Source of the DNA: a virus
Taxonomy: Duplodnaviria > Caudoviricetes
IMG/VR virus record: IMGVR_UViG_3300029288_000100
Coordinates: 32,001 to 96,000 of that record
Reading direction: 5' to 3' (one strand)
DNA: 64,000 nt
Made by a program: the position numbers and the translations under genes
Shown: piece by piece, positions 1,206-60,869 of the stretch
Layout: every line of letters starts with the position of its first letter
How positions within the stretch are numbered: position 1 is the stretch's first letter
Notes under the pieces: model-generated
Database searches by the model: none
Told to the model about the DNA's origin: nothing
What the model saw: the letters and a program-made list of their open reading frames with translations, nothing else

Positions 1206-2018
1206 ATGCGTACCGACACTGGAATTGACTGGGTGAAAGTAGCTGCGCGCATCATCGAGCGCCGCGAGCAAGTCTACGGCCCCAGATCAGGACCAACTTT
1301 CGCGCGCAAGATAGGCGTGTCCAAACAGACACTTTCGCGATGGGAGCAAGGGGCCACCATCAGAAAACCCGACCTTGAGACGCTGAGGCGCGAGCTCGGA
1401 ATGGCCCCACCGTGGCCCCTCGATGAGGGCGAAGAGACTGAACAACCTATTCTCCAAGCTGACCGAGACTGGCTCAATACCTGGTACAAGGTCCCTAAGC
1501 AGCACCGAATCCACCTGGAGGCGCTGGCCCGCGCGTTACTGCCGGTCGAACTGATCGCTGAACCCACCCAGTGCGAACTCGCTCAGACCGACATCGAGCG
1601 CGCGAAGGAGCGACGCAAGAAGAAGGCACCTGAACCGCCACTCGTGGGCCGCGTCGCCGCGCGCGAGGAGTCAGCACGGGTCGACTTCGCGGCGTGGGAG
1701 GAGTCATCCTCGGAGCTGGCGCGCGTGATCGTCGACGGCAACAGCATGGAGAGCATCTACCCGGACGGCACGGAGCTCCTCGTCAAACGCGCCAATCTCA
1801 ACTACAAGGTCGGCGACATCGTGATCGCGGAGACGGGAGCGCACGGGCTGGTCTGCAAGCGCTACAAGAGGCAGCGACACGGCGTCGTCACCTTGGAGAG
1901 CTGCACGGAGCGCAAGATCGAGCCCATCACCGGACCGCGCACGGAGAATGGGGAGGAGGGCATTGACGGGATCAGTGTGCGAGCCGTCGTCGTCGGAGTC
2001 TACGAGTCCGAACGCTGA
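1206..2018 (+). CDS. CI-like repressor (XRE HTH + S24 peptidase domain)
   Basis: HTH FARKIGVSKQTLSRWEQG; S24 Ser (VDGNSM) and Lys (VCKRY); LexA-like PLVGRVAA segment. Confidence 0.9.
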   Translation: MRTDTGIDWVKVAARIIERREQVYGPRSGPTFARKIGVSKQTLSRWEQGATIRKPDLETLRRELGMAPPWPLDEGEETEQPILQADRDWLNTWYKVPKQHRIHLEALARALLPVELIAEPTQCELAQTDIERAKERRKKKAPEPPLVGRVAAREESARVDFAAWEESSSELARVIVDGNSMESIYPDGTELLVKRANLNYKVGDIVIAETGAHGLVCKRYKRQRHGVVTLESCTERKIEPITGPRTENGEEGIDGISVRAVVVGVYESER

Positions 2019-2041
2019 CGCGCACGAAAGGGGGACCGCGT

Positions 2042-2554
2042 GTGACCACCAAGCAAACAGCAGAACTCCTCGTCGTCGGGTTCGTGCTCTTCGCGCTCAT
2101 CCTGAATGCGTGCGAGGACTGCATACAAACACCACCCACGACGGCGCCAGCCGCGGCAACTCCACCATCACCCTTACCCGACGCGACACTCAGCGTCGAC
2201 TGTAGAGGAGTCCTGGAGGACGCCGCCATCCTCGAGAAGCTCCACCGACAGGCGCAATCCCTCCGCTACCGCCTCTCCCGGGACACCTGCCAGAACATCA
2301 CCACCCTGGTTGAGGCGCGCTTCGACGCGACGTGGTCGACCAAGCGGAGGGTGCCTCCGCGCCGCGTACCGGGGGAGCCGCCCACCGCCGACGCGGCCCG
2401 CACGCTGCACATGAGCGGAGTCGCGATCCTGCTCCAGCTCGTCTGTGACGGACCAGCGAAGCTGAGGCGCGAGTTCGGACCCGACATCGTCCGCGACTAC
2501 GAGCGGGACCTGACGCAGTTCATCGCGCGTGTGAGGGAGACCTGCGCACGCTAG
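2042..2554 (+). CDS. Putative lipoprotein/membrane-anchored cargo protein
   Basis: Hydrophobic N-terminus ending ILNAC, followed by a Pro/Thr linker. Confidence 0.6.
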   Translation: MTTKQTAELLVVGFVLFALILNACEDCIQTPPTTAPAAATPPSPLPDATLSVDCRGVLEDAAILEKLHRQAQSLRYRLSRDTCQNITTLVEARFDATWSTKRRVPPRRVPGEPPTADAARTLHMSGVAILLQLVCDGPAKLRREFGPDIVRDYERDLTQFIARVRETCAR

Positions 2555-2563
2555 GAGGGGACC

Positions 2564-3628
2564 ATGTCATTCGCGTTGCGCGTACCTATGTTGACCGCAT
2601 TGCTCGTCGCGAACCCGAGCTGCTCGAGCGAGACCTGCGTCTCGGGGGCGACCCAGGTCTGCCACTGTCCGAGCGGCAAGCAAGGCGCGCAGTCCTGCGT
2701 CACCGAAGGCACCGGCTGGGGTCCGTGCCTCTGCGAGGGGAACATCGACGCAGGCCCCGACGACAGTCACACCCCTGACGCCCGACCACCCGGAGCAGAA
2801 GCCGGTGTCCCTACCCCTGACCGTTCCGTCGCTCCCGACGGCTGCGTACCAGAAACTGAGACCTGCAACGGGGTCGACGAGAACTGCAACGGCATCGTCG
2901 ACGACCTACCGGCTGGGACACCGAACACGTGGCGCGGCTACCGCGACACCGACGGCGACGGGTTCGGCACCGCCTCCTCGGCCGCGTGGCTCTGCGAACC
3001 ACAACCCGGATGGACCCAGAAACCCGGTGACTGCGACGACAAGCGCAAGGACGTGAACCCAGACATGACTGAGGTCTGTGGAGACGGGGTCGACAACGAC
3101 TGCAACGGGGTGAAGGAGGACACAGAAGTCTGCGGCTCGACACCTGCCCTCGTCGGCGACGCCAGCGACCTGACCGACCCGGGCGCCGTCCTGAAGACGT
3201 GCGGAATGGGTACCGTGTCCTCCGAGCTCGACGTGATCGCCCTCGCTGCCAAGCAGGACAAGCTCAACATCCGGTTCACCGCGAGGCTGGCCGGAGCGCC
3301 GTCCACCACAACGTGCGCCTCCTATGTCCTGCGGCTCGGCACCTTCCAGAAGGTCTACGAGATGATCTACGTCTTCCGCCCCGCCGGCGCCCCGTGCAGC
3401 GGTCTCCCCCAGCTCGAGGCATACCTGAAGGGGATGAAGGTGACCCCGGGTGCCACCGCGACTGTGAACGGGAGCGACGTGTCCTTCCTCATTCCCAAGA
3501 CCGAGTACTTCCCGTCGCTGAGCACACCGAGCTACTACCTCAAGGTCTGCACCAACGCGGTCGCCGACGCCTTCAAGGACGTGACGGACTGCGCCAGTGA
3601 CTCCTGCGAGACACCGGTCCACCGATGA
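2564..3628 (+). CDS. Cys-rich secreted/lipoprotein with MopE-related putative metal-binding repeats
   Basis: Signal-like N-terminus; ETCNGVDENCNG and DCDDKRKDVNPDMTEVCGDGVDNDCNG motifs typical of myxobacterial surface proteins. Confidence 0.75.
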   Translation: MSFALRVPMLTALLVANPSCSSETCVSGATQVCHCPSGKQGAQSCVTEGTGWGPCLCEGNIDAGPDDSHTPDARPPGAEAGVPTPDRSVAPDGCVPETETCNGVDENCNGIVDDLPAGTPNTWRGYRDTDGDGFGTASSAAWLCEPQPGWTQKPGDCDDKRKDVNPDMTEVCGDGVDNDCNGVKEDTEVCGSTPALVGDASDLTDPGAVLKTCGMGTVSSELDVIALAAKQDKLNIRFTARLAGAPSTTTCASYVLRLGTFQKVYEMIYVFRPAGAPCSGLPQLEAYLKGMKVTPGATATVNGSDVSFLIPKTEYFPSLSTPSYYLKVCTNAVADAFKDVTDCASDSCETPVHR

Positions 3629-3655
3629 TCCCCCGCGAGCCGGATACCATCCGGT

Positions 3656-4054
3656 GTGAGTCCAGCCGGTCTCCTCAGCGCACGACAAGCCGCCGCCTAC
3701 CTCGGGGTCAGCGCGTCACACTTCCGCCGCGAGCTCGCGCCGCGCCTACCCAGGGTCTGGCTCGGTGGGCAGACCTTCCGCTATCGCAAGGAGGCGCTTG
3801 ACGCATGGGTCGCAGAGCACGAGGTTGGACCCTCCGACTCAAGGGCGACACGTACCAAGCGCGCTTCACCGTCGGAGGCGAGCGCTTTGAGCGATCCACG
3901 GGTTGCAGCCGCGTACGAGAGGCTAACAAGAAAGCGGCGACCCTCTACCAGGAGGAGATCGCCAAAGCCACCCCAGGAGCAGCCCGACAACGTGGTGCCG
4001 CTGAATCGCTCACCATCTCCCTCAGCCGGTGGTCAAAAGAGCTCGAGCACCTGA
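3656..4054 (+). CDS. Excisionase-like HTH_17 protein
   Basis: LLSARQAAAYLGVS...FRYRKEALDAWV; directly upstream of and overlapping the integrase. Confidence 0.8.
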   Translation: MSPAGLLSARQAAAYLGVSASHFRRELAPRLPRVWLGGQTFRYRKEALDAWVAEHEVGPSDSRATRTKRASPSEASALSDPRVAAAYERLTRKRRPSTRRRSPKPPQEQPDNVVPLNRSPSPSAGGQKSSST

Positions 4055-4878
4055 AGTCCGACGAGTGGCACACCACTCTCGAGGTCTACGCCCAGGCCCA
4101 CTGGATACCGCGGTGGCAGACAGCCGCGGAAATCACCTCATCCTCGGTCGCCGGCTATATCACGGAGCGGCTGGCCGCCGGCGCAAGCCCGGTCACTGTC
4201 CGCAAGGAGCTCTCCGGCCTGCGGCGCTTCCTGTTCTGGGCCCTGCGGGAGAAGCTGCTCACTGAGCTACCTGGGTGGGAATCACCAAAGGGCAAAAGCG
4301 ACTTCCAAGCCCTCTGCCTGACCCCGGCTCAGGTGGAGAAGATGCTGAAGCTCCTCCCGACCAAGGCGACCCACCCAAAGCACCTGCCAGTCCGCGAGTA
4401 CTACGCTCTCATGTGGACCACTGCCTTCCGCCGCGGGACGATGGCGCGCCTGCAGTGGAGCGACGTGGACCTGAAGGCGGGCACGATCACGGTCCGCCCG
4501 AGCGCCGACAAGAGGGAGTACGACCGCATGATCCCCATCGACAACGGCATGGTGAAGACGCTCAGGAAGCTGGGGCCCGGGGTGGGGCTCATCTTCGGCC
4601 AGCGTGACTTCCGGGTGCAGCTACAGCGAGCTGCAGAGGGCGCACTGGGGAAGGAACTGGGGAAGCGGGTGGGGAACCACACCTTGCGCCACTCCAGAGG
4701 CACCTGGTGGGCTGAGAACGGCGTGGACCTACCGACCCTACAGTACCTGATGGGCCACCGCACCCTAACCTCTACCGCCCGCTACCTGCACGGACGGTTC
4801 GAGTCAGCCCGGGCAGCCGTGGATCGGTTAGCGGGGAAAAAACGGGGAAACCAGGGTACGGCGGGGAAGAGCAAGTAG
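3805..4878 (+). CDS. int: Tyrosine integrase
   Basis: Catalytic R (FRRGT), HTLRH, LMGH and TARY; N-terminal arm-binding-like segment; ends beside the tRNA fragment. Confidence 0.92.
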   Translation: MGRRARGWTLRLKGDTYQARFTVGGERFERSTGCSRVREANKKAATLYQEEIAKATPGAARQRGAAESLTISLSRWSKELEHLKSDEWHTTLEVYAQAHWIPRWQTAAEITSSSVAGYITERLAAGASPVTVRKELSGLRRFLFWALREKLLTELPGWESPKGKSDFQALCLTPAQVEKMLKLLPTKATHPKHLPVREYYALMWTTAFRRGTMARLQWSDVDLKAGTITVRPSADKREYDRMIPIDNGMVKTLRKLGPGVGLIFGQRDFRVQLQRAAEGALGKELGKRVGNHTLRHSRGTWWAENGVDLPTLQYLMGHRTLTSTARYLHGRFESARAAVDRLAGKKRGNQGTAGKSK

Positions 4879-5070
4879 GGCCAGAATTCTCGGAATCCTA
4901 AATAATCTCAAGTAGTGCGAAAGGGGGGAGTCGAACCCCCACAGCCTTGCGGCCGCTGGAACCTGAATCCAGCAACACGCGCCGGGAACACGTGGTTTTG
5001 CTGGGTTCCGCGCGCCATGAGTGGCTTTTTTGGGGGAATCGAAGCCGATAACGGGGAAGGAAGTGGGGAA
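4832..5070 (+). repeat. Putative integrase arm-type sites (C/T)GGGGAA at 4832, 4843, 4862, 5052 and 5064
   Basis: Same-orientation 7-mers, two pairs spaced 11-12 bp, on both sides of the tRNA core; AACGGGGAA is identical at 4841 and 5050. Confidence 0.55.
4916..4973 (-). mobile_element. att core: 3' 58 nt of tRNA-Leu(CAG), not a complete tRNA
   Basis: Minus strand reads GCTGGA-TTCAGGT-TCCAGC (anticodon CAG), long variable arm, GGGGGTTCGACTCCCCC T-arm, then the acceptor 3' strand ending TTTCGCA. No D-arm or 5' acceptor strand upstream. Confidence 0.88.
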
Positions 5071-5105
5071 GCAACCCGCCACGTCACGCCCCCGATAACC
5101 CCGGC

Positions 5106-5246
5106 ATGCCCTGCCTGGTGAAGCTGCTCTGCCGCATCTGCCTGCAGTGGGCCGAAGCATTCCGCGACCCGCACGCGGTGAAGCTCGCCCAGGCACTGCT
5201 CGACTGGGCCGCGGACAAGGGGCTCGAGGATGAGGTGTGGAACTAG
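5106..5246 (+). CDS. Small hypothetical protein (46 aa, MPCLVKLLCRICLQWAEAF...)
   Basis: Own translation; GC3-rich codons; stop overlaps the stop of the recombinase; no clear SD. Confidence 0.35.
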   Translation: MPCLVKLLCRICLQWAEAFRDPHAVKLAQALLDWAADKGLEDEVWN

Positions 5247-5941
5247 CCTGCCAGCACCGACCGCACAGACGACGCGTACCAGATGCCCCCGCGCTTCGTC
5301 GGCACCCGGTCCGCGTTCAGCCGCTCCGCGATCTCCCGGAGCGCCAGGCCTCGCGCACGCAGGTCCCGGATGGTGCCCAGCACCCGCTGCTCACCCGGGT
5401 CGACCTCGAACCTCTGCCCGACCCGGCGGAAGCCGAAGCGGTCGCGGGTGGTGACGCGCCCCTCGCGGTGGCACCTCTCCATCGCCTCCCGGGTGCGCTG
5501 CGCAATGAGGTCCCGCTCCATCTGCGCCAGCCCACCCAGGATGGTGAGCGTGAAGCGACCATGCGGGGTGGAGGAGTCGAGCTGCTCCCGGACCGACACG
5601 AACCCGCGGCCGGCGCGGTTGAGCTCGTCCACTGTCTGCAGGAGGTCCAGCGTGCTCCGCGAGAGTCGGTCGATAGCGTAGACCACGAGCGCGTCCGCCT
5701 CCCCGCGCCGAAGGCGATCCAGCACCTCCTGGACGCCCGGCCGATCGAGGTTCTTCCCTGAGGCGCCGCGGTCCGCCACCACGTCCACGAGCTCGCCGCC
5801 GGCGAAGCTCACGTACGCCCGGATCCGCTCCTCCTGCGCCTCGAGCGACACACCGTTCTCAGCCTGGTCCGACGTGCTCACCCGGATGTACCCAATGTAC
5901 CTCGACGAACGCGACGGCTGGAGCATCTTCACACGAGTCAT
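5243..5941 (-). CDS. Serine recombinase (resolvase catalytic domain + short Recombinase-type DNA-binding domain)
   Basis: YIRVST catalytic Ser, SGKNLDRPG, DRLSRS; C-terminal LREIAERLNADRVPTKRGGIW. Confidence 0.9.
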   Translation of the reverse strand: MTRVKMLQPSRSSRYIGYIRVSTSDQAENGVSLEAQEERIRAYVSFAGGELVDVVADRGASGKNLDRPGVQEVLDRLRRGEADALVVYAIDRLSRSTLDLLQTVDELNRAGRGFVSVREQLDSSTPHGRFTLTILGGLAQMERDLIAQRTREAMERCHREGRVTTRDRFGFRRVGQRFEVDPGEQRVLGTIRDLRARGLALREIAERLNADRVPTKRGGIWYASSVRSVLAG

Positions 5942-5968
5942 GGGCAGCCTCTTTGTTGGTACACCATC

Positions 5969-5997
5969 ATCTTAACCGCGGTTAACCGCGGGGTCAA
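5969..5997 (-). promoter_or_regulatory. Sigma-70-type promoter TTGACC-17-TAAGAT with operator CTTAACCGCGGTTAAC
   Basis: Read directly; same motif as at 55849, 59735, 60775 and 60852. Confidence 0.8.
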
Positions 5998-6022
5998 CGA
6001 TATTCGGGAGGGATGGTGGTAG

Positions 6023-6205
6023 CTAGCCCGCTTTGTTCTGGCTAATCCGCGCTTCAACCACTCGGACAGCCGCTTGGAGCCCGTGTAGATATCCTTGGTA
6101 CTCAGAGAACAGCTCGGAGTCGAACGGTGCGACTGCCTGGTCTACCAGCTTTCTCAGGTCCGCGAGCACTTCGTTGAGTGCCCTATGTGCGTCAAGAGAA
6201 GTCAT
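6023..6205 (-). CDS. Hypothetical protein, 60 aa
   Basis: Follows the primase in the operon with an SD-like AGGTG. Confidence 0.5.
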   Translation of the reverse strand: MTSLDAHRALNEVLADLRKLVDQAVAPFDSELFSEYQGYLHGLQAAVRVVEARISQNKAG

Positions 6206-6217
6206 ATGAACACCTGC

Positions 6218-7372
6218 TCAGGCGAGTCTCCGCACCCGACGAAAGTGCAAGAGCACCTGGGGACACACCAGCGAGCCGCGGACCGCGTCCTCGGGGGCGT
6301 CCGCCGGGTCTGTCCCCTCCGGCATCTGGTGCACGCGCACCTCTGAGAACACCGAGAAGCGACTGCGCACCGACTCCGCCAGCGCCGCGCCGCCGGCGTC
6401 CCCATCCGCCAGGCAGAGGACCATCCGGGCGCCACGGAGTGCCCTCGCCTGCGCCTCGTGTACGCGCCCGCCGAGGACCGCCCGCACGTTCCCCAGCGAC
6501 GTGAGCGCTGAGGCACCCAGCGCCACCAGCGTCCGCTGCACCCGGAGCGCGTCGAAGATCCCCTCCACGAGCACCACCGGGCGCGAGAGGTCCGGTTCCC
6601 CATCGCCCCACGTCACCCCCGCGGAGGGGAGCGGCACGCCCGGGCAGTAGCGCCCCTTGTCGCGGGACGGCAGCCGCCGGGTGATCCCGCGGACGAACCA
6701 GTTCACGTCCTCGCCGGCGCGCCGGATGGGGAAGAGCACGCCCGGCACCGTCCGACCCAGGGTGCTCTTGAGATCCGCGCCGGCCCGGCGCACCGCGCGC
6801 ACGCCGAGCTCCGCGGCACGCTTCGGCGTCACCCCGCGCCCGGCGAGGTAACGGAGGAACTCGGGGGTCGCCTGCTCAATGGGCTGCGACGGGGGCCAGA
6901 TCACCTCCGGCTGTGGGAGGGGAACCTTCGCGAGCCGCAACGCCTCGATCGCGCGCCAGTGTGCGTCCGGGTCCGGCTCCGCCTTCTTCACCCGCAGCTT
7001 GAGGTACTCGGCGCGCAGCCACTTCTCTGCGGTCTCCTCCTCGTCGTTCGTGCTGAAGCTACTGAACTTCCCTCGCTGGACCCGCGACACCAGGTCCAGG
7101 AACGACGCACCGTAGATGCTCCCACCCGGGTGTGACCAGCAGTTGAACCACCCGAGGCGGTTCCGCCCCTTCTCGTCGACGACCGGCTCGACGCAGACGT
7201 GGAATGAAGGGTGCGCCTCGACGTGGTCCGGATCCGGGCAGTAGCAGTAGAGGTCAGCCCCCTTGAGGTGACTCACCTGCACCCCAAGGTCCTCGAGCAC
7301 CTCCTCCAGGTCGAGTCGTTGGAGCATCCGCAGCATCCGGCTGATCCGGTGCTCCCTGGCCTCACTCGACAT
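6218..7372 (-). CDS. DnaG-like primase (Zn finger + TOPRIM)
   Basis: CPDPDH...FNCW Zn-binding region; VEGIFD, DGDAGG and DPAD TOPRIM motifs. Confidence 0.85.
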   Translation of the reverse strand: MSSEAREHRISRMLRMLQRLDLEEVLEDLGVQVSHLKGADLYCYCPDPDHVEAHPSFHVCVEPVVDEKGRNRLGWFNCWSHPGGSIYGASFLDLVSRVQRGKFSSFSTNDEEETAEKWLRAEYLKLRVKKAEPDPDAHWRAIEALRLAKVPLPQPEVIWPPSQPIEQATPEFLRYLAGRGVTPKRAAELGVRAVRRAGADLKSTLGRTVPGVLFPIRRAGEDVNWFVRGITRRLPSRDKGRYCPGVPLPSAGVTWGDGEPDLSRPVVLVEGIFDALRVQRTLVALGASALTSLGNVRAVLGGRVHEAQARALRGARMVLCLADGDAGGAALAESVRSRFSVFSEVRVHQMPEGTDPADAPEDAVRGSLVCPQVLLHFRRVRRLA

Positions 7373-9421: not shown

Positions 9422-10602
9422 TCCTCAGCAGCCCGCTTGTCCCAGTACTCGCGGTCCGTCCCGCCGATGTTGTTCTTTTCGTGCTGCGTCAGCTCCCGCT
9501 TCCGCTTCGGCTGCTTCTGGTAGAGCCGCTGCACGTTGCCCTCCGAGCTCGGCGTCAGGAAGAACCGCAGGCTGCACGGCATGCCGAGGTCCTCCGCGCG
9601 CTCGAGGATCTTGTCCACCACCCCCTTAACCGGGATGAAGTCACCGTCGTGGAAGTTGTCGGTGAACCGCTTCACGTTGCGGAGGAGCGGCGCCATCCCG
9701 TGCACATCGACGGAGAAGAGCTGCCCATCCTCCTCCCCCCGGACCTCGAGAAAGCGGCACACCCAGTACCCGACGAGATCTGACGCCCGCCACTCCTTTG
9801 GGGGAAGGTCACGCCAGCGGGTGAACTCCCAGCGCTGCGAGGGCGTCCGCCGACACTCCTTCCCGGAGGGAGCTTGCTTCTTCACCCGAGGTTTGGACCT
9901 GACGTCTCCTGCCTTGGGCTTCGCCACCCGAGGGGGTGATGTGCTCTCCGCCACGGTCCGACTTCCACCATCCGGGTTCGGAGTCAACTCCTCTTCCTCG
10001 CCACCCTTCGCGTCGGGTAGCGGAGCGTCTCCTCCCTTGCTCCGCAGAGGCGGAGCGGTAGGGATCTTAGAACTGATCTTATTATGATCTAAGGGGGAGG
10101 GACCTGGGGTCCCCCCCAAACCGGACTTAAAGCCCCCCCTGTTCGGACTCGAAGCCCCCCCTGCTTCATCATCGTCTTCTTCCAACTCGACTGACCCGAG
10201 GAGGTGCCTCTCCGCGGTCGCGTGGATGGACTCCGGGACGAAGAGTTCAACGTCTATCACCTGTGTCCCGGAGCGCTTGCGTCGTCTGGTCCGCTGGAGG
10301 AAGTGTTTCTCCTCCATGTCGTCCATGGCTCGTCGCATGCTGCGGCGCACGTTGTCGCGGTCCTTGCGCAGCTCGTCCCGCTGAACAGGAGTCAGATCTC
10401 CATCTGGGTCGTGGAGTGCCGCGCGAACCTGGTCTGCCACACCGCGCATCGACAACTTCCAGCGCGTCTGCTGTGCGGTATAGAACACACCGTAGATGAT
10501 CTTCTGGAAGTCACTCAGTTGCTTGGGTCGACACTGCAGGATGGGGAGGGGGATCTGGATGAAGGGGTAGTTCCTCGGATTCGTCAGGTTAGCGTGTGAC
10601 AT
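9382..10602 (-). CDS. Phage replication initiator-like protein
   Basis: N-terminal wHTH-like region, low-complexity middle containing DNA repeats, position upstream of loader and helicase. Confidence 0.7.
   Translation of the reverse strand: MSHANLTNPRNYPFIQIPLPILQCRPKQLSDFQKIIYGVFYTAQQTRWKLSMRGVADQVRAALHDPDGDLTPVQRDELRKDRDNVRRSMRRAMDDMEEKHFLQRTRRRKRSGTQVIDVELFVPESIHATAERHLLGSVELEEDDDEAGGASSPNRGGFKSGLGGTPGPSPLDHNKISSKIPTAPPLRSKGGDAPLPDAKGGEEEELTPNPDGGSRTVAESTSPPRVAKPKAGDVRSKPRVKKQAPSGKECRRTPSQRWEFTRWRDLPPKEWRASDLVGYWVCRFLEVRGEEDGQLFSVDVHGMAPLLRNVKRFTDNFHDGDFIPVKGVVDKILERAEDLGMPCSLRFFLTPSSEGNVQRLYQKQPKRKRELTQHEKNNIGGTDREYWDKRAAEECRRYQAANGGRK
10063..10166. repeat. Putative replication origin: three GATCT AT-rich repeats (10063, 10075, 10086) and three GGAC-N6/7-CCCCCCC iterons (10100, 10123, 10145)
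   Basis: Read directly; 22-23 bp iteron spacing; lambda-O-like position inside the initiator gene. Confidence 0.65.
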
Positions 10603-10909
10603 CGGTGGACTCCTGGCAGGTCGTGTGGAAAATGAACCCGTTCGCCAGAGCGGTCACTTTGAGTAGGTCCGCCGCAGTGAGATGCTCGATCATGCGCCGC
10701 ACGTGGGATCGACTCGTGCCGAACTCGCGCGCGAGGTAGGAGATGGTCGGGGACCAGCAGTGTGATTCATGCTCCCGGGTGAAGATGAACCCAAACAGCG
10801 CGTGCTCCTCCCAGGAGATCCTCTTCTTGGCGGCAGCACAGCGCGCGATCACAGGACACTGGTCAAAGAGGAAGTCTGTCAGGTGCGTCCCCGGTTGGTT
10901 CGCCTTCAT
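10589..10909 (-). CDS. HTH protein (phage replication-type wHTH)
   Basis: CWSPTISYLAREFGTSRSHVRRMIEHLTAADLL. Confidence 0.7.
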   Translation of the reverse strand: MKANQPGTHLTDFLFDQCPVIARCAAAKKRISWEEHALFGFIFTREHESHCWSPTISYLAREFGTSRSHVRRMIEHLTAADLLKVTALANGFIFHTTCQESTDVTR

Positions 10910-10929
10910 CTCATCAAGCTCCGGACAAG

Positions 10930-42252: not shown

Positions 42253-43455
42253 TCAGTCGAGGCCGATGTTGATGCCCTTGACCGTCGCCGTGATCTCCTC
42301 GACCTGCACCCCGGGCTTGGTGGTTATCGCGAACTGGTTCACCCCCTTGAAGATCTCACGCCCAGTCTCGATCCGCACCTCCCGCGACAGGACGAAGATG
42401 AGGTTCGACATCTCGGTCAGCGCGATCTGCGAGAGCGAGTTGTAGGTCACCTTCACCGTTGCGCCAGCGTTGAGGGCCCCACCGCCGATCGTGGTGATGG
42501 TCCCGAGGATGCGGTTCACGTTGTAGTCGACGCCCTCGACGTAGGGGGTCGTCGGGATCTTGCCGAGGGTCGACGGGCAGAGGATGACCGTCGCGCCGAT
42601 CGGCTTGTAGCGGAGCGCCATGGTGGCCGGTGCGGCGCCGAAGACCAGGTGCTCGGTGACGAGCGGCTCGGAGTCGAGCATCGGCACCGGGACCATGGGG
42701 ATCCCGAAGACCGGGATCTTCGCGTCGCCGGTCACCGCGGCGTCACCGCCGGGCGTCGCGCGGGCGCCGAACTTCTCGCGCCAGGTCTGCTCGAGGTCCA
42801 TCGAGACGAGCCAGCGCAGGTTCCGGCGCGTGCGGCGGAACTTGATGGGAAGCCTCTTCAGCATCTTGCTGAAGATCTGGAGGGAGACGTTCGCGCCCTC
42901 GGCGTCATAGACGTTCCCCGCGTCGAGCAGGCGCAGCCAGCCGTTGAACCTGGCCAGCAGGCTGTCCTGGATGACCTGGGTGGTGCTCCCACCATCGTAG
43001 AAGAAGTTCTCGAGGCGGGCGGGCCCGAGCAGATCGCCGTTGATGGCGAGCTCCTCGGTGTCGTTCGCCGCATGGGTGGCCATCATTCGGATGACGTGGT
43101 CCTCGACGTCCTCACCCTCGATGTTGCTCTCCCCGAACTCGTCGGAGATCTCGAAGGGGGTCATCAGGGTCACGGTGTTGAGCACCACCTGCGACGTGTT
43201 GACGCCGGCGCGGAAGCCCGGGTCGCGCGCCTCCTCCTTCGGGACGGTCACGCGGCGCCCGACACCGATCTTGTCGACGTTCTTCGACTGACCGTCGATC
43301 TTGACCATGCGGACGGAACCTTTGAGCTCCGTCACGTCGATCTCGTAGTCCAGGAACTGGTTCGACTGCTCGGCGTTGAGCAGCCCGCCGCCTGCGAGCT
43401 GGGACGCGGTGGCGATCGCCTTCTGGTAGTACTGCAGCAGCTCCTCGTTGGTCAT
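42253..43455 (-). CDS. Major capsid protein (HK97 fold)
   Basis: GGLLNAEQSNQF, ESNIEGED, ANDTEELAINGD, FNGWLR; follows the protease. Confidence 0.9.
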   Translation of the reverse strand: MTNEELLQYYQKAIATASQLAGGGLLNAEQSNQFLDYEIDVTELKGSVRMVKIDGQSKNVDKIGVGRRVTVPKEEARDPGFRAGVNTSQVVLNTVTLMTPFEISDEFGESNIEGEDVEDHVIRMMATHAANDTEELAINGDLLGPARLENFFYDGGSTTQVIQDSLLARFNGWLRLLDAGNVYDAEGANVSLQIFSKMLKRLPIKFRRTRRNLRWLVSMDLEQTWREKFGARATPGGDAAVTGDAKIPVFGIPMVPVPMLDSEPLVTEHLVFGAAPATMALRYKPIGATVILCPSTLGKIPTTPYVEGVDYNVNRILGTITTIGGGALNAGATVKVTYNSLSQIALTEMSNLIFVLSREVRIETGREIFKGVNQFAITTKPGVQVEEITATVKGINIGLD

Positions 43456-50800: not shown

Positions 50801-50801
50801 A

Positions 50802-51095: not shown

Positions 51096-51114
51096 GCGGT
51101 CCTCCTGCCGAACT

Positions 51115-51519
51115 TCATTGCGCGTCCTCACACCGGACCACCTCCGCGGAGCGCCGGCACCGCAGCTCCACCGATCGCCCGACCTCGCCAACGAAGGCGG
51201 TCCAGGTGTCTTCCCCCGGGCGCCGCTCCAGCTCGACGGTGAGCACCCCGGCCCTGTTGGAGCGGATCTGCAGCCGCGGTGACCGCTTCGTTGGCTCCGT
51301 CACGAGGCGCAGGCGTAGTGGTTGCGCGCTCCGGAAGTCCGTCTCGGAGGTGCGACGACGCAGCTCGAAGCCGCCCACGGACTGCGTGACCCCCAGGGTT
51401 CCGGGCTCGTCGCGGATCAGGCGGTAGCTGAAGTCGAGGGTGAGCGTCACCCGGTTCGGTCCGGGCTCTGCCGGACACCCGATCGCGAGCAGTGCGGTCA
51501 CCACCACCAGGTACCGCAC
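51115..51519 (-). CDS. Putative lipoprotein
   Basis: (M)RYLVVVTALLAIGC lipobox; start reassigned to GTG 51519. Confidence 0.6.
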   Translation of the reverse strand: MRYLVVVTALLAIGCPAEPGPNRVTLTLDFSYRLIRDEPGTLGVTQSVGGFELRRRTSETDFRSAQPLRLRLVTEPTKRSPRLQIRSNRAGVLTVELERRPGEDTWTAFVGEVGRSVELRCRRSAEVVRCEDAQ

Positions 51520-51521
51520 GG

Positions 51522-53201: not shown

Positions 53202-53204
53202 GGG

Positions 53205-54785: not shown

Positions 54786-54839
54786 GGGTGGAACCTCCAC
54801 CCGCACGCTATCCGCGCCGATGGGACGTCGCCGAGCAGA

Positions 54840-55640
54840 ATGAGCACGTCGCGCTGGATACAGGTGGACATGCCGAAGAAAGCCAAGGACCTGGACCTGA
54901 AGCTGAACGAGGGAGCGCGGGCCCGCGCCGAGCTGGTGGCGCGCGAAGGCCCCCAGGGGGTGGGGGAGGAGATGTCCCGCCAGAAACGGGACGTGGCGCA
55001 GTACCGCGCGGGCCTCGCCCTGCTCTGGGATGATGGGCGCATCCTCGCGGAGACCGGGTGGAGCGCCCAGAAGCTCTCCGCTATCCGAGAGCTGGTCAGC
55101 CAGCTCGACGAGCAGGTCGCAAAGGGGACGGACACCGCGCGTGTCTGGGCGGAGTACCGGGAGCAGCAGTTCCAGTGTGCGCGCGAGCTCGAGGACCTCG
55201 CCGCCATCTTCCGCGGGTCGAGCCAGTTCAACGCGCTCGTCGCCGCGGTGAAGGCGCGCTCGGACATCCTGACCGGGCTCCTCAAGGCCGGGCAGGACCT
55301 GGGCGTCATCAACCGCGCGAGCAAGAAGATCGAGATCCGCGGCAAGGTGGACGTGAATCGCCTCTCGGTTGAAGAGCTCCGCGTGCACCTCCGGCTGGAG
55401 CTCCAGGAGCTGGAGTCGATGTTGAAGCTCCCGGACGAGCGCAAGCCCCACAAGTTGCTCTCGCGCAGCCCGGCAGACGCCGTCCTGAACCGCATCCTGA
55501 GCGGCGCGGGGAAGTCGCGGGTGATTGAGGCAGAGGCGGAAGCGGTGGGGGAGGTGGACTCGGAGCCTGACCGGGATAGTGAACCTGCCCCGCGGGAGCC
55601 GCGCGTGCGCCGGCTGGCGGAGGACGAGGACGAAAGTTAG
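54840..55640 (+). CDS. Helical protein, possible terminase small subunit
   Basis: KKIEIRGKVDVNRLSVEELR resembles TerS C-termini; strong coding GC3; start uncertain (54840 or 54870). Confidence 0.45.
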   Translation: MSTSRWIQVDMPKKAKDLDLKLNEGARARAELVAREGPQGVGEEMSRQKRDVAQYRAGLALLWDDGRILAETGWSAQKLSAIRELVSQLDEQVAKGTDTARVWAEYREQQFQCARELEDLAAIFRGSSQFNALVAAVKARSDILTGLLKAGQDLGVINRASKKIEIRGKVDVNRLSVEELRVHLRLELQELESMLKLPDERKPHKLLSRSPADAVLNRILSGAGKSRVIEAEAEAVGEVDSEPDRDSEPAPREPRVRRLAEDEDES

Positions 55641-55840
55641 CCGCCCTCGTCTGCGCCCGGGCCACGCTGCGGATTCCACTCGGCGAGGTCCTCTGCCTTC
55701 ACCAGCCAAGACCGCCCGACCTGGAATGCTGGCAGCTTTCCGTCCTGCACCGCCTGGAAGACCGCGATCCGGGAACACCCCTTCAGCTCTGCGACCTCCG
55801 GGAGGGTGTAGAGCTCTTTCTTGATCCGCTTCTTGGGCAT
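55637..55840 (-). CDS. HTH_17 (excisionase/MerR-like) DNA-binding protein
   Basis: YTLPEVAELKGCSRIAV...GKLPAFQVGRSWLV. Confidence 0.85.
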   Translation of the reverse strand: MPKKRIKKELYTLPEVAELKGCSRIAVFQAVQDGKLPAFQVGRSWLVKAEDLAEWNPQRGPGADEGG

Positions 55841-55846
55841 GACCAT

Positions 55847-55875
55847 AGCTTAACCCCCGTCAAGGAATGACGCAA
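55847..55875 (-). promoter_or_regulatory. Promoter TTGCGT-17-TAAGCT with operator CTTAACCCCCGTCAAG (55849-55864)
   Basis: Read directly; 6 nt upstream of ATG 55840. Confidence 0.6.
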
Positions 55876-56231
55876 CAGTTCACCGGCGGATCCAGCTCCA
55901 GGTCATCCTCCCGGGCTGTGATCCGCCGAACGCCGGGGACGCACCGGCTCGAGGTCGCCACGAGCTCGCCGGCCAGGACCACGCCGATCTGCGTCGAGGC
56001 CGCCTCCAGGTCCGCGAACCCGAGCCCGTTGTGGGTCATCGTGCAGGCGTTCGGGTGCGCGGGGTCAATCGCGAACCAGGGCCAGAGCGCTGTCGGGTGG
56101 CCGCAGTGACGCAGAACCCACCCGCTCGTGTGGCGCCACTCCGCCGCGCACTTCGACCACGGATGGGGGTCGACTCTGATCCAACCGAGGTGCGCCATCC
56201 GCTTGTGGCTGATGGGTGGGCGGCGGGTCAC
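55860..56231 (-). CDS. Hypothetical protein (HCGHPTALWPW motif)
   Basis: GTGA overlap at 56228-56231. Confidence 0.6.
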   Translation of the reverse strand: MTRRPPISHKRMAHLGWIRVDPHPWSKCAAEWRHTSGWVLRHCGHPTALWPWFAIDPAHPNACTMTHNGLGFADLEAASTQIGVVLAGELVATSSRCVPGVRRITAREDDLELDPPVNCCVIP

Positions 56232-56446
56232 GGCCGCCCCACCAGCGCGAGCAGCACCCGGGCCTGAGCGCGGGTCAGCTTCATCCGGATGTCCACCGCC
56301 GCAGCAGGAACGATCGCAACATCGAGCGACAGGCTCCACTCAGGCCGGCTACGCCCCCTGGCTGAGCACCAGAGCCCCATGGCGGGGGCGATGTCCCAGC
56401 AGCGGATGCCGCAGTCGCGGTAGCTCGGGCGAAGGTGCTCGGTCAT
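56228..56446 (-). CDS. Hypothetical protein
   Basis: 4-nt overlaps on both sides. Confidence 0.55.
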   Translation of the reverse strand: MTEHLRPSYRDCGIRCWDIAPAMGLWCSARGRSRPEWSLSLDVAIVPAAAVDIRMKLTRAQARVLLALVGRP

Positions 56447-56787
56447 CGCCGTGCCTCTGTGTCCCGGTCCAGGGAGGGCTCCGCGGCCGGCTTGGCCAGC
56501 ACGGCGTCGCAGAGCATCATCGCGCGCTGGTAGTGCTGCACGTGCTCATCACTCGCGTGACTGCGCAGGATCCCGAAGGCGGCCACAAGCTGGTGGCGCG
56601 CGGCGGTAAGCGCCTCGGTCAGCCGCGCCAGCTCCTCCAGCACTGCTGACTCCCCGGCGCAAGCGGACTCGATGGCAGTAGCCATCTTGGCTCTACCGAG
56701 GTCGTACCCGTAGGCGTCGCGCCTGTCCGCCTCGGCTTCACATCGGGCGCGACAGTCGTTGCACTGATCCAGGTGTGTGCAGCGCAT
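56443..56787 (-). CDS. Hypothetical protein (Cys-rich N-terminus)
   Basis: SD GGAGG, TGATG junction. Confidence 0.6.
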   Translation of the reverse strand: MRCTHLDQCNDCRARCEAEADRRDAYGYDLGRAKMATAIESACAGESAVLEELARLTEALTAARHQLVAAFGILRSHASDEHVQHYQRAMMLCDAVLAKPAAEPSLDRDTEARR

Positions 56788-57050
56788 CAGACCACCTCCT
56801 CGTCAAGGAGCTCGGCCTCCGGGTCGAGCTCACCGTACTCCAGCCGGATGCGGAACGACTCCAGCTCCTCCCGCATCCGGTGAAGCACGTGCAACTGGAG
56901 TTGCAGCTCCTTCCAGAGATCCCCCTGTTCCGGCCCCCCGCGGCGCTTCGCATCGCTTTGGCGCCTCCGGAGGTCCGCGACCCACCACCACTGGCGCGGG
57001 ATCTCGCGCTCCAGGTCGGCGATCTCCGCCTCCAGCTCCCGCTTCGTCAC
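56787..57050 (-). CDS. Hypothetical coiled-coil protein
   Basis: (M)TKRELEAEIADLERE; GTGA overlap with the DUF4942 stop. Confidence 0.55.
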   Translation of the reverse strand: MTKRELEAEIADLEREIPRQWWWVADLRRRQSDAKRRGGPEQGDLWKELQLQLHVLHRMREELESFRIRLEYGELDPEAELLDEEVV

Positions 57051-57880
57051 GCGCGCCCCCTGTCCTCCGCGGGAGGGAGGGCCCCTGGATGGTGCTTCGC
57101 CACGATCTCGTTCAGTCGGTCGACCAGGTCCGGCCGCAGAAAGGTCAGATGCCCATTGCTGTTCTTGAAGCACCGGATGGAGATCAGGTCCGCAATCGCC
57201 ACCGGCTCAACCGGGAACCGGGTGTCGAAGGTGATCACCTCCCGGAGCGCGTTGTAGGCGCCCTGCCGGTGATCGGGCTCGGGCCTGCCGTCGAGGACCG
57301 ACATCACGCGGATCAGGTCGTCGAGCCCGTTGCAGCCCGCCAAGCTTGGCCCAGTGTGATACTTCTGCCCGCCGCTGCCCCAGACCTCCACGATGCGCCG
57401 CAGGACAATCCGCTTACCGAAGAGGCGCGGGTTGTTGGTCTTGTAGTCCCAGCTCAGGTGACGAAAGACCTCCACCACCCCGCGCTCGAACATCTCCCGC
57501 CGGGCGGCGAAGAGCTCCTTGAAGGTTTCCTCGATGTTCTCCTGGGTAAGCGCCGGCACCCGGCGCTCGTAGATGTCTTTGGTCCACTGCTCGCGCGCTT
57601 TGGCGTCCATGAAGGTCCTCAGGCCGCTCTTGTTCATGAGGAAGTCCCAGGCCGTCGCGTCCACCCGCTTGACCAGCGCCTCGACATCACCCGGGAGGTA
57701 GGCGTGCACCCGCTGGCACTGCAGACTTGGCACCGCGTCATCTGACCCGAAGGCCGCCTCGCTCAACTCGCCCACCTCGATGAGCAGTGTAGCGATCTGG
57801 CGTAGCCGCTCTGCAATCGCGTTGCGCTGCGCCAGCAGATTGCTGATGGAGACGGACGGCACCAAGTCGGTCGCGTGCAT
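57047..57880 (-). CDS. DUF4942 domain protein
   Basis: AWDFLMNKSG...MD, FERGVVEVFRHLSWDYKTN, FGKRIV, FKNSNGHLTF. Confidence 0.85.
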   Translation of the reverse strand: MHATDLVPSVSISNLLAQRNAIAERLRQIATLLIEVGELSEAAFGSDDAVPSLQCQRVHAYLPGDVEALVKRVDATAWDFLMNKSGLRTFMDAKAREQWTKDIYERRVPALTQENIEETFKELFAARREMFERGVVEVFRHLSWDYKTNNPRLFGKRIVLRRIVEVWGSGGQKYHTGPSLAGCNGLDDLIRVMSVLDGRPEPDHRQGAYNALREVITFDTRFPVEPVAIADLISIRCFKNSNGHLTFLRPDLVDRLNEIVAKHHPGALPPAEDRGRA

Positions 57881-58794
57881 GCGTTCACCTCATGCCTTCT
57901 TCAGCCCGCAGTCGAGGAGGTGCTGGGCCAGCTTCTCTCGTACCTCGAGGTTCTGGGTCAGCCACTGGCAGGCGGCGGCCCGACCCTGGCCGAGCTGCGT
58001 CTCGTTGAGCGCGTACCAGGAGCCGCTCTTCTTGATGACGCCCGCCTCGAGGCCGAGGTCCACTATCTCGGCCTCCCGGTGCACGCCCTTACCGTAGACA
58101 ATGTCGAACTCAGCCTCGCAGAAGGGCGGGGCGAGCTTGTTCTTGACCACCTTGACCAGTGTGCGGTTTCCGATCACCTGGTCTCCCTGCTTGATGGCGT
58201 CGATGCACCGGATGTCCATGCGCACCGAGGCGTAGAACTTGAGCGCAGTGCACACTGCAATCGAGCCGTATGTGACACCGATTTTCTGTCGCGTCTGGCG
58301 GATGAAGAGGATGCTCGTGCCCGTGCGGAAGGCAGCGCCGGTGAGCTTGCGCATCGCCTGGCTCATCAGCCGCGCCCGCAGCCCCATATGGGTGTCGCCC
58401 ATGTCGCCCTCGAGCTCGGCCTTGGGCACCAGCGCCGCGACCGAGTCCACGACCACGATGTCGACCGCGTTCGACTTCACCAGCATATCGGTGATCTCGA
58501 GCGCCTGCTCGCCGTGGTCCGGCTGAGACAACAAGAGCTCCTCGACGCGGACGCCCAGCTTGTGGGCGTAGCCCACGTCGAGCGCGTGCTCGGCGTCGAT
58601 GAAGCCGCACACCCCGCCGCGCCGCTGCACCTCGGCGATGGCGTGGAGGGCCAGGGTGGTCTTGCCCGAGGACTCGGGGCCGTAGACCTCGATCAGCCGG
58701 CCGCGGGGGAGCCCCCCGGTGCCCAGCGCCAGGTCCAGGGTGAGCGACCCTGAGGGGAAGGTCTCTACTGCCGTCGCGTTCATGCGTTCACCTC
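57870..58794. repeat. 22-bp direct repeats GTCGCGT(G/T)CATGCGTTCACCTC at 57870-57891 and 58773-58794 bracketing recA
   Basis: 21 of 22 bases identical, read directly; each copy is SD + ATG + first codons of a gene. Confidence 0.85.
57890..58783 (-). CDS. recA: RecA homologue, N-terminally truncated, with an altered L2 loop
   Basis: [50 protein letters not shown]; start MNATAVETF at 58783 (SD GAGGTGA). Confidence 0.92.
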
Positions 58795-58797
58795 GTC

Positions 58798-59463
58798 TCA
58801 AGGCAGAAGGTGCAGGGCGGCATCCCGGAGGTACCGCTCCTCCCCATCCACCGCCACGTGGTAGACCCAGGTCACCGCTCGGTGCGGGCACCCGGCCGCG
58901 AAGAGCGCGCGCTCTGCCACCCCGCGGAGCCAGTCCCTTTGAACCGAGCGCTCGACGTCCGCGCGCTCGATCCGCCCCCACTCGCCTGGCCGCCTCTCGA
59001 GGTCCGCGGTTGTGACGCAGCGGAAGCACTCTCCCACCCAGCACGTCTCCCAGCCGCCGCGCCCGAGCTTGTCCACCGTCCAGGTCGCCGCCGGCGGAGT
59101 CAACCCCTGCAGCGCGGTCCGGGCCACCTCCGCCAGTTCGCGAGCTCGTTCCTCTACGTGCGCCGCCATCAGGCGCTTGGTCTCTGCGCGCGCCTCGCGC
59201 TCCGCCGCCTTGACCGCCGGGAAGTCGACCCCTGGGAGAAGCCCCTCAGCGAGCAACTTGGGGCCGCAGCCAGACCCCACCGTCAGGGAGCCCCCACCCG
59301 GTCGCTCGAGCAGCGTCCAGACCACCGCGTGCCGCCTCCCGCACCGCACGCACTCAGGGAGCTCGCACGTGTCGACCGGTAGCCGCTTCCCGGAGTCCCA
59401 GTCAATCGGGCGGACGTCGTGGATCTTGAGCAGCTCGTAGGTCTTGCCAGCGTCGAGCGTCAT
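58798..59463 (-). CDS. Hypothetical protein with Zn-finger-like motif
   Basis: CVRCGRRH...VGSGC. Confidence 0.65.
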
Positions 59464-59726
59464 CAGCGCACATCCTCACGCCGGTTGCTGTGCAGAGTCA
59501 CAAGGCGCTCTGCGGCCGCTTCCGGAGTCCGATAGATGATGCAACTGTTAGCAGGCTCGAAGCCGGCGTTGGGGTAGAGCTGGCAGCAAGGAACCAGCGG
59601 GCGCCAGCCACCCTCAGCCCTACGAACCGCACCGACGGTCTTTCCGGCAATGCTGACGCGACCGAAGTTCTGGCTGAGCATTTCAACCTTCATCTGAGCC
59701 TCCTTCGTCTGCGTCTTGTTGTTCAT
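59463..59726 (-). CDS. Small early hypothetical protein
   Basis: Directly behind the promoter; alternative SD-led start at 59693. Confidence 0.6.
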   Translation of the reverse strand: MNNKTQTKEAQMKVEMLSQNFGRVSIAGKTVGAVRRAEGGWRPLVPCCQLYPNAGFEPANSCIIYRTPEAAAERLVTLHSNRREDVR

Positions 59727-59732
59727 GAATCT

Positions 59733-59761
59733 ATCTTAACCGTGGTTAAGCAAAAAGTCAA
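59733..59761 (-). promoter_or_regulatory. Promoter TTGACT-17-TAAGAT with operator CTTAACCGTGGTTAAG (59735-59750)
   Basis: Near-consensus sigma-70 boxes; near-identical to 60773-60801. Confidence 0.85.
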
Positions 59762-60096
59762 TACCCCAAAAGGAACATCAGCTGCAAATCTCGCTGAGCG
59801 TCCTCTTTCCGCCACCGCTCGACGTCCGCATCGCTCGGGAGAACGACGGGAAGGTCCTCAGGTTCATAGATGGTGGGGTCGATCCCTTCCTCCTCGAGTC
59901 GCACTAGCCACCGCGCTGCCTCGAACGGGTCGTGAGCCAGGACCACAGGACCTCCCTGAAGGTCCAGAACACACCAGGTTGGAGTCTCCGGGGTGACCAC
60001 CGCAGGGGTGTACCGGCCAGCGGAGAACCTCTCCCCGAGGTAGCTCCCCCTGGTCACGAGCTGCACCAGGACTTGCTCGATATCGTCGGAGATCAT
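59758..60096 (-). CDS. Hypothetical protein (MISDDIEQVL...)
   Basis: ATGA overlap with the upstream gene. Confidence 0.6.
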   Translation of the reverse strand: MISDDIEQVLVQLVTRGSYLGERFSAGRYTPAVVTPETPTWCVLDLQGGPVVLAHDPFEAARWLVRLEEEGIDPTIYEPEDLPVVLPSDADVERWRKEDAQRDLQLMFLLGY

Positions 60097-60488
60097 GCCG
60101 CCACCCGCCCGGCCTCGCGGAGCACCTTCTCGAGCTGCCAGTGGATCTCCACGTGCTTGTAGAAGTTGCACGAGAAGTAGTCCACCGACGAGTCCGAGTC
60201 GTCCCGCCGGTAGGCGTCGACCAGCCCCTCGAGCTGCTTGAGGAGCGCGCAGGTCTCGGGCGCCTTCGCGTGCGGGCACTCCGGGTCGCCGGCCAACACC
60301 GGGAACCCAGCCGGGAGCGCGGTCACGTTGACGGACAGGGAGCACCCCATGGAGAACCTCGAGATCGTCACGCTCGCCTTGAGGCCGGCGGGGAGCTCGC
60401 CCGCCCGCACTGCCTCCCTGATATCCACGCGGAGCGCCTTGGCGATCTCCGCAACGTCCTGACCCTGGATGTACTTGGAACCGTTCAC
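60093..60488 (-). CDS. LPD29-like (large polyvalent protein-associated domain) protein
   Basis: EIAKALR...KASVTISRFSMGCSLSV...DSDSSVDYFSCNFY; GTG start with SD GGAGG. Confidence 0.65.
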   Translation of the reverse strand: MNGSKYIQGQDVAEIAKALRVDIREAVRAGELPAGLKASVTISRFSMGCSLSVNVTALPAGFPVLAGDPECPHAKAPETCALLKQLEGLVDAYRRDDSDSSVDYFSCNFYKHVEIHWQLEKVLREAGRVAA

Positions 60489-60766
60489 TGGGCACCTCCC
60501 TGCACGATCGCGTAAGCGAGCTCGAAGCCGAGGTCGAACTGCTTGCTCTGCTTGATGAAGGCCGTGAACACCTTGGCGTGGCGGGGGAGGGCCCGACGCA
60601 GCTGCGCGTAGGTGACGATGTTGACGTACGCGAAGGCGTCGACGTCGATCCCCACCTCCGCCGCCCACTCCCGAGCAACCTGGGACAGAGCCTCGTACCC
60701 GTTGCAAGCCGCGATCTTCTTCATCAGCTGCGTCATCTTCGGCTCCTCGGTTCGTGTCGTGTTCAT
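60485..60766 (-). CDS. Small early hypothetical protein
   Basis: Directly behind the promoter; alternative SD-led start at MTQL. Confidence 0.6.
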   Translation of the reverse strand: MNTTRTEEPKMTQLMKKIAACNGYEALSQVAREWAAEVGIDVDAFAYVNIVTYAQLRRALPRHAKVFTAFIKQSKQFDLGFELAYAIVQGGAQ

Positions 60767-60772
60767 GTTCTT

Positions 60773-60801
60773 ATCTTAACCGCGGTTAAGCACAAAGTCA
60801 A
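60773..60801 (-). promoter_or_regulatory. Promoter TTGACT-17-TAAGAT with perfect operator CTTAACCGCGGTTAAG (60775-60790)
   Basis: Read directly. Confidence 0.85.
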
Positions 60802-60840
60802 TCCCCCAGCGAACGATTTTCACCGCGGGCTCGATTATCG

Positions 60841-60869
60841 TTGCCTCCTATCTTAACCTGTGTTAAGCT
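60841..60869 (+). promoter_or_regulatory. Divergent promoter TTGCCT-17-TAAGCT with operator CTTAACCTGTGTTAAG (60852-60867)
   Basis: Read directly; precedes SD GGAGG and ATG 60893. Confidence 0.75.

Follow-up and report, generated by a model that had tools for sequence, protein, structure and literature searches.

Within a 64,000-nt stretch of viral DNA (hereafter the window), which spans bases 32001 to 96000 of one IMG/VR virus record of 110,098 bp (IMGVR_UViG_3300029288_000100; CheckV completeness: 100%), an early phage operon was found to encode a truncated RecA protein derived from a host. The same phage carries a CI-like repressor with an unusual cleavage site and a set of dispersed early promoters that share the palindromic box CTTAAC-N4-GTTAAG. 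The initial annotation had joined these traits into one SOS-uncoupled system, implying that Ala-X CI variants, truncated RecA and the CTTAAC box would co-occur in related genomes. This co-occurrence fails: the parts that were read of a sister phage genome hold the CI type and the box, and the syntenic operon lacks recA. With recA missing from the sister operon, the evidence does not support the three traits as a single system. As judged from sequence comparison, the CI protein, the box regulon and the RecA copy are modular parts and not one co-inherited system, the CI type and box regulon occurring together in the one available relative and the RecA copy being an add-on of this lineage. The explanation to which we give roughly even credence combines a CI switch and a dispersed-operator early regulon with a RecA core that would cap or poison host RecA filaments during early lytic growth.

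The sister sequences are two contigs, L213 and L217, of ENA sample ERZ27247780, and the comparison covers the parts of the sister genome read there. Both contigs share 50-87% protein identity and the same gene order with the phage in the window, and most likely derive from one phage. An Ala-Lys CI protein with the operator GTCACA-N3-TGTGAC is encoded on L213, where the promoter of the serine recombinase orthologue also holds a perfect box. On L217 a perfect box lies ahead of the operon orthologous to that of the 221-amino acid early protein (gp221) preceding recA in the window, and an identical 16-base degenerate box lies in the same place before an HTH_17 gene. At the position of recA, between the gp221 homologue and the gene for a DUF4942 protein, L217 has three small open reading frames (ORFs), and recA was found near gp221 homologues in none of the five neighbourhoods examined, including that of the sister. 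Downstream of its early region, L217 further encodes a sigma-70-family protein (9528-10646; Sigma70_r2/r4_2).

The RecA copy (57890..58783, minus strand; 297 amino acids) comprises the ATPase core and C-terminal domain, as identified by Pfam matches (RecA, PF00154; E-value: 7.6e-112; C-terminal domain, PF21096; E-value: 1.3e-17) and alignments. Its alignment to Escherichia coli RecA begins at residue 36, so that ~31 N-terminal residues are gone, and all 119 of the nearest cellular RecA proteins have an N-terminal extension of at least 29 residues before that point. A three-residue deletion in loop L2 removes G211 and G212, and the protein stops at about E. coli residue 330, short of the acidic C-terminal tail. 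The lesions behind the disabled RecA of the initial annotation are thus confirmed for the N-terminal docking segment, the L2 Gly-Gly pair and the acidic tail. Walker A, Walker B, E96, Q194, K248 and K250 are retained. Of 113 near-invariant columns (≥97% conserved in the 119 cellular proteins), 107 are kept in the phage copy, and the six deviations (N193R, T208V, T209C, loss of G211, loss of G212 and R227C) all lie in or beside L2, apart from R227. The L2 columns T208, T209, G211 and G212, together with N193, are 99-100% conserved in the cellular set and are altered or deleted here, while changes are also observed in the less strictly conserved columns (G229D, R243L, K256C and Q167R). In RecA, L2 and the K232/R243/K245 patch bind LexA, UmuD, CI and DinI (PMC9926225).

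Several other explanations for these lesions were considered. The gene has its own GAGG ribosome-binding site and an ATG start codon, with the upstream gene terminating 14 nt before this ATG, and the in-frame upstream extension overlaps gp221 and holds no RecA-like sequence, which argues against a mis-called start. A RecA-NT-like segment is absent from every frame of the phage, which rules out a split RecA with its N-terminal helix encoded in a separate ORF, and the L2 change did not arise by a simple frameshift pair.

The phage protein shares 76-80% amino acid identity with full-length chromosomal RecA proteins and is placed as sister to a clade of 11 cellular RecAs (support: 0.82), from which it follows that the gene was captured from a host; the comM-recA chromosomal context is conserved in both RecA relatives whose contigs were read. 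Its branch length is ordinary (0.25, against a mean of 0.20), and comparison with the closest chromosomal gene gives a pairwise dN/dS of 0.19 (dS: 0.76), similar to the 0.22 of a cellular-cellular pair. The low dN/dS and unexceptional branch argue, at the level of sequence, for purifying selection on a retained but altered function rather than for a decaying fragment. That the copy is instead a functionless, recently captured piece heading for decay would agree with its being unique to this phage among the matches listed and with the loss of several elements essential to a recombinase. We consider this unlikely, given the intact 297-codon frame with its own ribosome-binding site and gaps of 7-14 nt to the neighbouring genes, the selection estimate, and the retention of nearly all near-invariant columns and of the ATPase motifs; furthermore, the N193R replacement requires two base changes.

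Among other phage RecA proteins, the N-terminus is kept in all those encoded at five IMG/VR loci and in one distant relative of this phage (L211; IMG/VR 3300032164_000006; 72 kb), and metagenomic RecAs that were sampled keep the N-terminus in 80/80 cases and the L2 Gly-Gly pair in 79/80, the loop of the last not being locatable. The relative L211 has a low G+C content and a capsid protein with 43% identity to that of the phage in the window; its RecA is full-length and of a different lineage, and its recA gene neighbours a gene for a 448-amino acid protein with a long acidic and lysine-rich low-complexity stretch and a large ORF that appears nuclease-like by eye. No homologue search returned a second truncated recA copy among the matches listed. 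Some observations weigh against the explanation favoured below. The R243L replacement also occurs in 6/119 cellular RecAs, up to five conserved-column deviations are found in a cellular RecA, and, as the copy is a singleton, a function for it has no comparative support.

In the explanation favoured here, a single early operon, in this phage only, has acquired a host recA, which was then cut down to the ATPase core and C-domain and is maintained by purifying selection. The product should be unable to donate the N-terminal docking helix or to bind DNA through L2 and site II, but would most likely join protomers of the host RecA by way of its core and ATP-site surfaces, which are intact. Since such a protein could neither propagate a filament nor hold DNA, it would cap or poison host filaments, and would thereby damp recombination and the SOS response early in lytic growth. 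The sequence features, the way in which they are conserved and the failure of co-occurrence are observed, while all binding partners in this scheme and the dominant-negative action of the RecA copy are predicted. A broader proposal, put forward tentatively, is that the copy has become a dominant-negative cap that has an intact ATP site and acceptor surface but neither donor helix nor L2, and in which site II is weakened. Produced early from the phage-specific, operator-controlled promoter, it would terminate or poison host RecA filaments and so stop the SOS response and recombination and keep rival prophages from being induced; repressors with an Ala-Lys/Arg site would, in parallel, form a class of S24 proteins with distinct cleavage control. 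A role for the copy as private co-protease for the odd CI was dropped, as filament formation would be impossible and the sister phage does without it.

The RecA core might conversely act as a positive accessory, in the manner of a mediator or paralogue (compare ImuA, Sak4 and the Rad51 paralogues), steering host RecA or the recombination and replication of the phage. RecA-fold proteins that lack an N-terminal segment of their own do bind RecA or partners with a RecA-NT motif (PMC11791113; bioRxiv 10.1101/2020.12.14.422803), and the ATP site of the phage copy is intact. However, no phage protein carries such a motif, and the loss of L2 and the site II arginines speaks against DNA transactions, so that an accessory role appears quite unlikely.

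The recA copy comes third in an operon that starts from a promoter at 59733..59761 (minus strand; TTGACT-17-TAAGAT), which harbors a perfect box (CTTAACCGTGGTTAAG; 59735-59750) and was recovered independently by a promoter scan. No terminator is predicted between this promoter and recA, two genes downstream of the first, and the CI operators are of a different sequence; the placement of RecA downstream of an operator-controlled promoter independent of CI, as initially proposed, is therefore borne out. Perfect boxes also occur at 60775 and 60852, and boxes with one mismatch at 5971 and 55849, compared with 0.01 expected in the window. The box occupies the spacer and -10 element of near-consensus sigma-70 promoters (TTGACy-17-TAAGAT) at 5969, 59733 and 60773, all on the minus strand. 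The 60773..60801 promoter (TTGACT-17-TAAGAT; box: 60775-60790) has a leaderless-type start, and that at 5969..5997 (TTGACC-17-TAAGAT; box GTTAACCGCGGTTAAG, 5971-5986) transcribes a small serine recombinase with a Resolvase domain (5243..5941, minus strand). The third perfect box (60852..60867) may belong to a tandem minus-strand promoter, to the promoter of a divergent plus-strand gene, or to both, while the degenerate box CTTGACGGGGGTTAAG (55849..55864, minus strand) lies directly upstream of the HTH_17 gene. The remainder of the 110-kb contig has no close match, its lone other hit being intragenic with two mismatches, and an IMG/VR pattern scan for the box returned just chance hits in AT-rich contigs. 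The box would regulate at least three, and probably four or five, promoters, driving the early operons and the serine recombinase gene.

The first genes of both early operons, encoding proteins of 87 and 93 amino acids (starts at 59726 and 60766), have their ATG 7 nt past the -10 element and lack a ribosome-binding site, and because of this spacing their transcripts are probably leaderless. In the recA operon, the 87-amino acid gene (59463..59726, minus strand) is followed by that for gp221 (58798..59463, minus strand), a protein widespread in phages, where it occurs without recA. Downstream of recA lies the gene for the DUF4942 protein (57047..57880, minus strand; 70% identical in L217), which has a weak N-terminal match to KleA/KleC, proteins of IncP plasmids regulated by KorC, and PHROG matches to DNA-methyltransferase-associated families. 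The upstream operon (59758..60766, minus strand) consists of three ORFs (60485-60766, ~60093-60482 and ~59758-60096), the middle one having a counterpart with 81% identity in L217. The lone plus-strand gene of the region (60881..61294) is divergent from the box promoters, and its product has a C-terminal CxxC...CxxC motif but no family or fold lead. Most of the early ORFs have no match in PHROGs, Pfam or Atlas, and a Pfam scan at E ≤0.1 assigned no family to 62519-63283.

The box and the CI operator GTCCCA-N3-TGGGAC are different palindromes, and the latter is found at cI alone. The conservation of the box in the sister phage, where the CI operator has diverged, provides good evidence, at the sequence level, that a protein other than CI reads the box. 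The 69-amino acid HTH_17 DNA-binding protein (55637..55846, minus strand; Pfam E-value: 5e-9), which is encoded behind the degenerate box, is the best guess for a phage-encoded binder and would recognise CTTAAC-N4-GTTAAG. Its sister phage homologue shares 87% identity with it, more than is seen for any other protein compared. HTH_17 proteins often bind direct repeats and not palindromes, which counts against this assignment. The serine recombinase is an unlikely binder, as 16 bp appears too short for a crossover site.

With one base per half-site separating it from CTGAAC-N4-GTTCAG, the 6-N4-6 palindrome could alternatively represent the LexA site of an unsampled true host and control an antirepressor, which would couple the phage to SOS in the manner of Gifsy or 186; pairings of a non-cleavable repressor with an antirepressor under LexA control have been described (PMC3121763). 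We regard this as very improbable. In the seven full boxes of the two phages, of which six are perfect palindromes and one has a left-half mismatch, the right half is GTTAAG in 7/7 cases and never GTTCAG, while the lexA promoters of two host-lineage genomes (G001 and G003) carry GAAC/GTAC-N4-GTTCAG. GAAC-N4-GTTCAG occurs above control in G001 and marginally so in G003, and the phage box is absent from all three host-lineage genomes (G001-G003; 19 Mb), among them G001, whose tRNA-Leu matches the phage attP at 97% identity. The box was accordingly rejected as a host LexA box. Within the phage there is no intergenic host-type SOS box, the single GAAC-N4-GTTC in 110 kb being intragenic and at chance level, and thus no LexA wiring is visible; no phage-encoded LexA DNA-binding domain was found.

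The CI-like repressor (1206..2018, plus strand) combines HTH_3 (E-value: 3.9e-7) and Peptidase_S24 (E-value: 2e-9) domains and is the only protein of either type in the phage. Codons 1653-1667 encode V-A-A-R-E, with Ala152-Arg153 (1659-1664; Arg codon CGC, 1662-1664) in place of the Ala-Gly of LexA and CI proteins, so that the lack of a scissile Gly reported in the initial annotation is confirmed. In the alignment the linker reads PLVGRVAA-R-EES, compared with VVGRVAA-G-QP in the host-lineage LexA, while the catalytic dyad is retained (Ser180 in GNSM; Lys218 in VCKRY), both residues being invariant in an alignment that includes a LexA. Relatives of this CI escaped a word-based search of 5.8 billion proteins; an exhaustive HMMER search yielded 27. 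The five nearest (P0124-P0128; 33-40% identity) all carry LVGxVAA-[K/R]-E and all keep the Ser/Lys dyad, whereas the remoter relatives, LexA and canonical CI-like proteins in the alignment have AAG (VAAG) at the cleavage site. As it is common to five diverged nearest relatives, the Ala-[K/R] site is a family character and not a one-off Ind- mutation, and the protein belongs to a small subfamily in which V-A-A-[K/R]-E replaces V-A-A-G. With Val-Ala-Ala at P3-P1, Lys/Arg at P1' and the dyad conserved together in diverged proteins, non-cleavability, the other part of the initial claim about CI, is unproven and doubtful, and the sequences look like a maintained, non-canonical substrate site and not a dead one.

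Cleavage at Ala-Arg/Lys, either autonomous or aided by activated RecA (RecA*), with the phage remaining coupled to DNA damage and the site tuning the rate or specificity of cleavage, is a serious possibility, to which we give somewhat less than even weight. In the related Ser/Lys signal peptidases the P1' position can be filled by many residues, which agrees with it, as does the conservation of LVGxVAA-[K/R]-E, Ser180 and Lys218 at such low overall identity. The G85D variant of LexA is, however, non-cleavable. Ala-Gly (or Cys-Gly) at the scissile bond is moreover treated as a defining feature of S24 repressors (PMC8565304), from which this CI departs by Arg at P1'. It also lacks the acidic patch ahead of the catalytic Lys (GAHG, versus DGE/DDE in relatives in the alignment), a patch which in LexA, UmuD and lambda CI contacts K232/R243/K245 of RecA (PMC9926225).

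The P1' Arg and the missing acidic patch would also be expected in the integrated system first proposed, in which CI is uncleavable, the RecA copy jams RecA* for the host and co-resident prophages, and a separate signal acting through the box regulon flips the switch. The missing host-type SOS boxes in the regulatory DNA of the phage, the independence of the box from CI and the lesions of the RecA copy likewise fit this proposal. It is nevertheless decidedly unlikely, as the CI type and box regulon occur in the sister phage alongside an operon devoid of recA, as the dyad and the V-A-A at P3-P1 kept throughout the subfamily are hard to explain for a dead site, and as recA is located in an early lytic-type operon and not beside cI, which leaves its expression in the lysogen unproven.

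In the CI switch as we favour it, the repressor would bind three putative operators, GTCCCA-N3-TGGGAC, at 1102, 1146 and 1178 (span: 1102..1192), between its own gene and a divergent 78-amino acid gene in the Cro position (844..1080, minus strand). No further site with up to one mismatch occurs in the whole 110-kb contig. The product of the Cro-position gene appears ribbon-helix-helix-like by eye and has no Pfam hit, but a homologue with 53% identity is encoded in the same place on L213, and a lambda-like switch with divergent small genes is found in every member of the CI subfamily with readable context. Immediately after cI and co-directional with it are two genes (2042-3628) whose products are 51-62% identical in the sister phage, namely a 170-amino acid protein with an N-terminal membrane helix and a 354-amino acid Cys-rich protein with a lipoprotein-type signal, the sister homologue of which has a MopE-like Pfam hit. 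Both may be expressed in the lysogen and serve a surface or exclusion function.

The first 146 nt of the record are repeated at its end with three mismatches, located near the end (1-146 versus 109953-110098), which points to a circular or terminally redundant genome, although the IMG/VR entry is linear. As this is a single complete record with a terminal overlap, cI and recA are located on the same phage genome, and the possibility of two adjacent prophages, suggested by an integrase beside a tRNA gene, was ruled out. The phage has a G+C content of ~66%, nearly all of its genes are on the minus strand, and its major capsid protein (42253-43455) shares ~36% identity with counterparts in large Streptomyces phages. 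A tyrosine integrase is encoded at 3805..4878 (plus strand), as recognised by reading of the tyrosine-recombinase C-terminal motifs and by position, with an HTH_17 (Xis-like) match just upstream (~3671-3820). The integrase of the sister phage (L213) differs, being just 27% identical and carrying the Pfam Phage_integrase domain, and no tRNA is found there. Adjoining the integrase gene in the window is a tRNA-Leu(CAG) (4915..5001, minus strand), the likely attP core, which over its 3' 58 nt matches, at 97% identity, a tRNA-Leu of G001, an 8-Mb metagenome-assembled genome of an uncultured 'Deltaproteobacteria' member with a RecA 74% identical to the phage copy. The confinement of this match to the 3' part is typical of an attP site by which the tRNA gene is restored upon integration. 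On the basis of the integrase, the tRNA-Leu and the matches to G001, the element is, by its sequence, a complete 110-kb temperate phage with an uncultured myxobacterium-like (Myxococcota-like) host.

If the trimmed RecA acts as a filament poison, it would represent the first natural conversion by a virus of a host recombinase into its inhibitor, as well as a small tool with which RecA could be turned off. In the Ala-Lys/Arg subfamily, where the dyad is kept, it can be tested directly whether S24 self-cleavage strictly requires Gly at P1', and the subfamily may inform how phages of Myxococcota, a group with LexA-independent damage responses (PMC12288472), decide on induction. The negative co-occurrence result matters in that it identifies the parts as modular.

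The known kinds extended here are the mobile-element modulators of SOS and RecA and the non-canonical S24 repressors. Plasmid-encoded PsiB is a mobile-element inhibitor of RecA and SOS. The same logic, a mobile-element factor that damps RecA responses with effects on co-resident elements, is found in Hex of phage 434 (PMC3564112), AriS of a Listeria phage (PMC9043618) and ICEBs1 (PMC11841131). All four of these inhibitory factors are unrelated to RecA, whereas the phage candidate is a trimmed host RecA with a predicted activity. E. coli RecA crystal fusions (3CMU/3CMW), the first repeat of which aligns to the RecA copy from chain residue 11, reportedly had the N-terminal segment deleted to stop polymerisation; those fusions are engineered, whereas the phage copy is natural and is further altered in L2, in site II and at the C-terminal tail. 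ImuA, which is encoded in a cellular operon, is a RecA paralogue of ancient and distant origin. ImuA and ImuA' resemble what is predicted for the phage protein in being non-recombinase RecA-like cores that bind RecA or a RecA-NT motif (bioRxiv 10.1101/2020.12.14.422803; PMC11791113), but the copy described here is phage-borne and 76-80% identical to bona fide RecA.

The C1 repressor of P1 governs a dispersed-operator regulon in a large temperate phage. The box regulon resembles those of the C1 type in that one and the same operator recurs at several early promoters far apart, but its operator is unrelated and it coexists with a lambda-like CI switch. The CI protein shares with LexA and lambda CI an N-terminal HTH domain, the S24 fold with its Ser/Lys dyad, the LVGRVAA context of the cleavage site and a switch with divergent genes and flanking operators, and differs from them in the absence of the acidic patch and in having Arg (Lys/Arg in the subfamily) and not Gly at P1' (PMC8565304). 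As in the prophage repressors of the Gifsy type (PMC3121763), cleavage by the RecA route is not expected and induction would require another protein; those prophages employ trans-acting antirepressors, whereas in this phage neither an antirepressor nor an intergenic host-type LexA box was identified.

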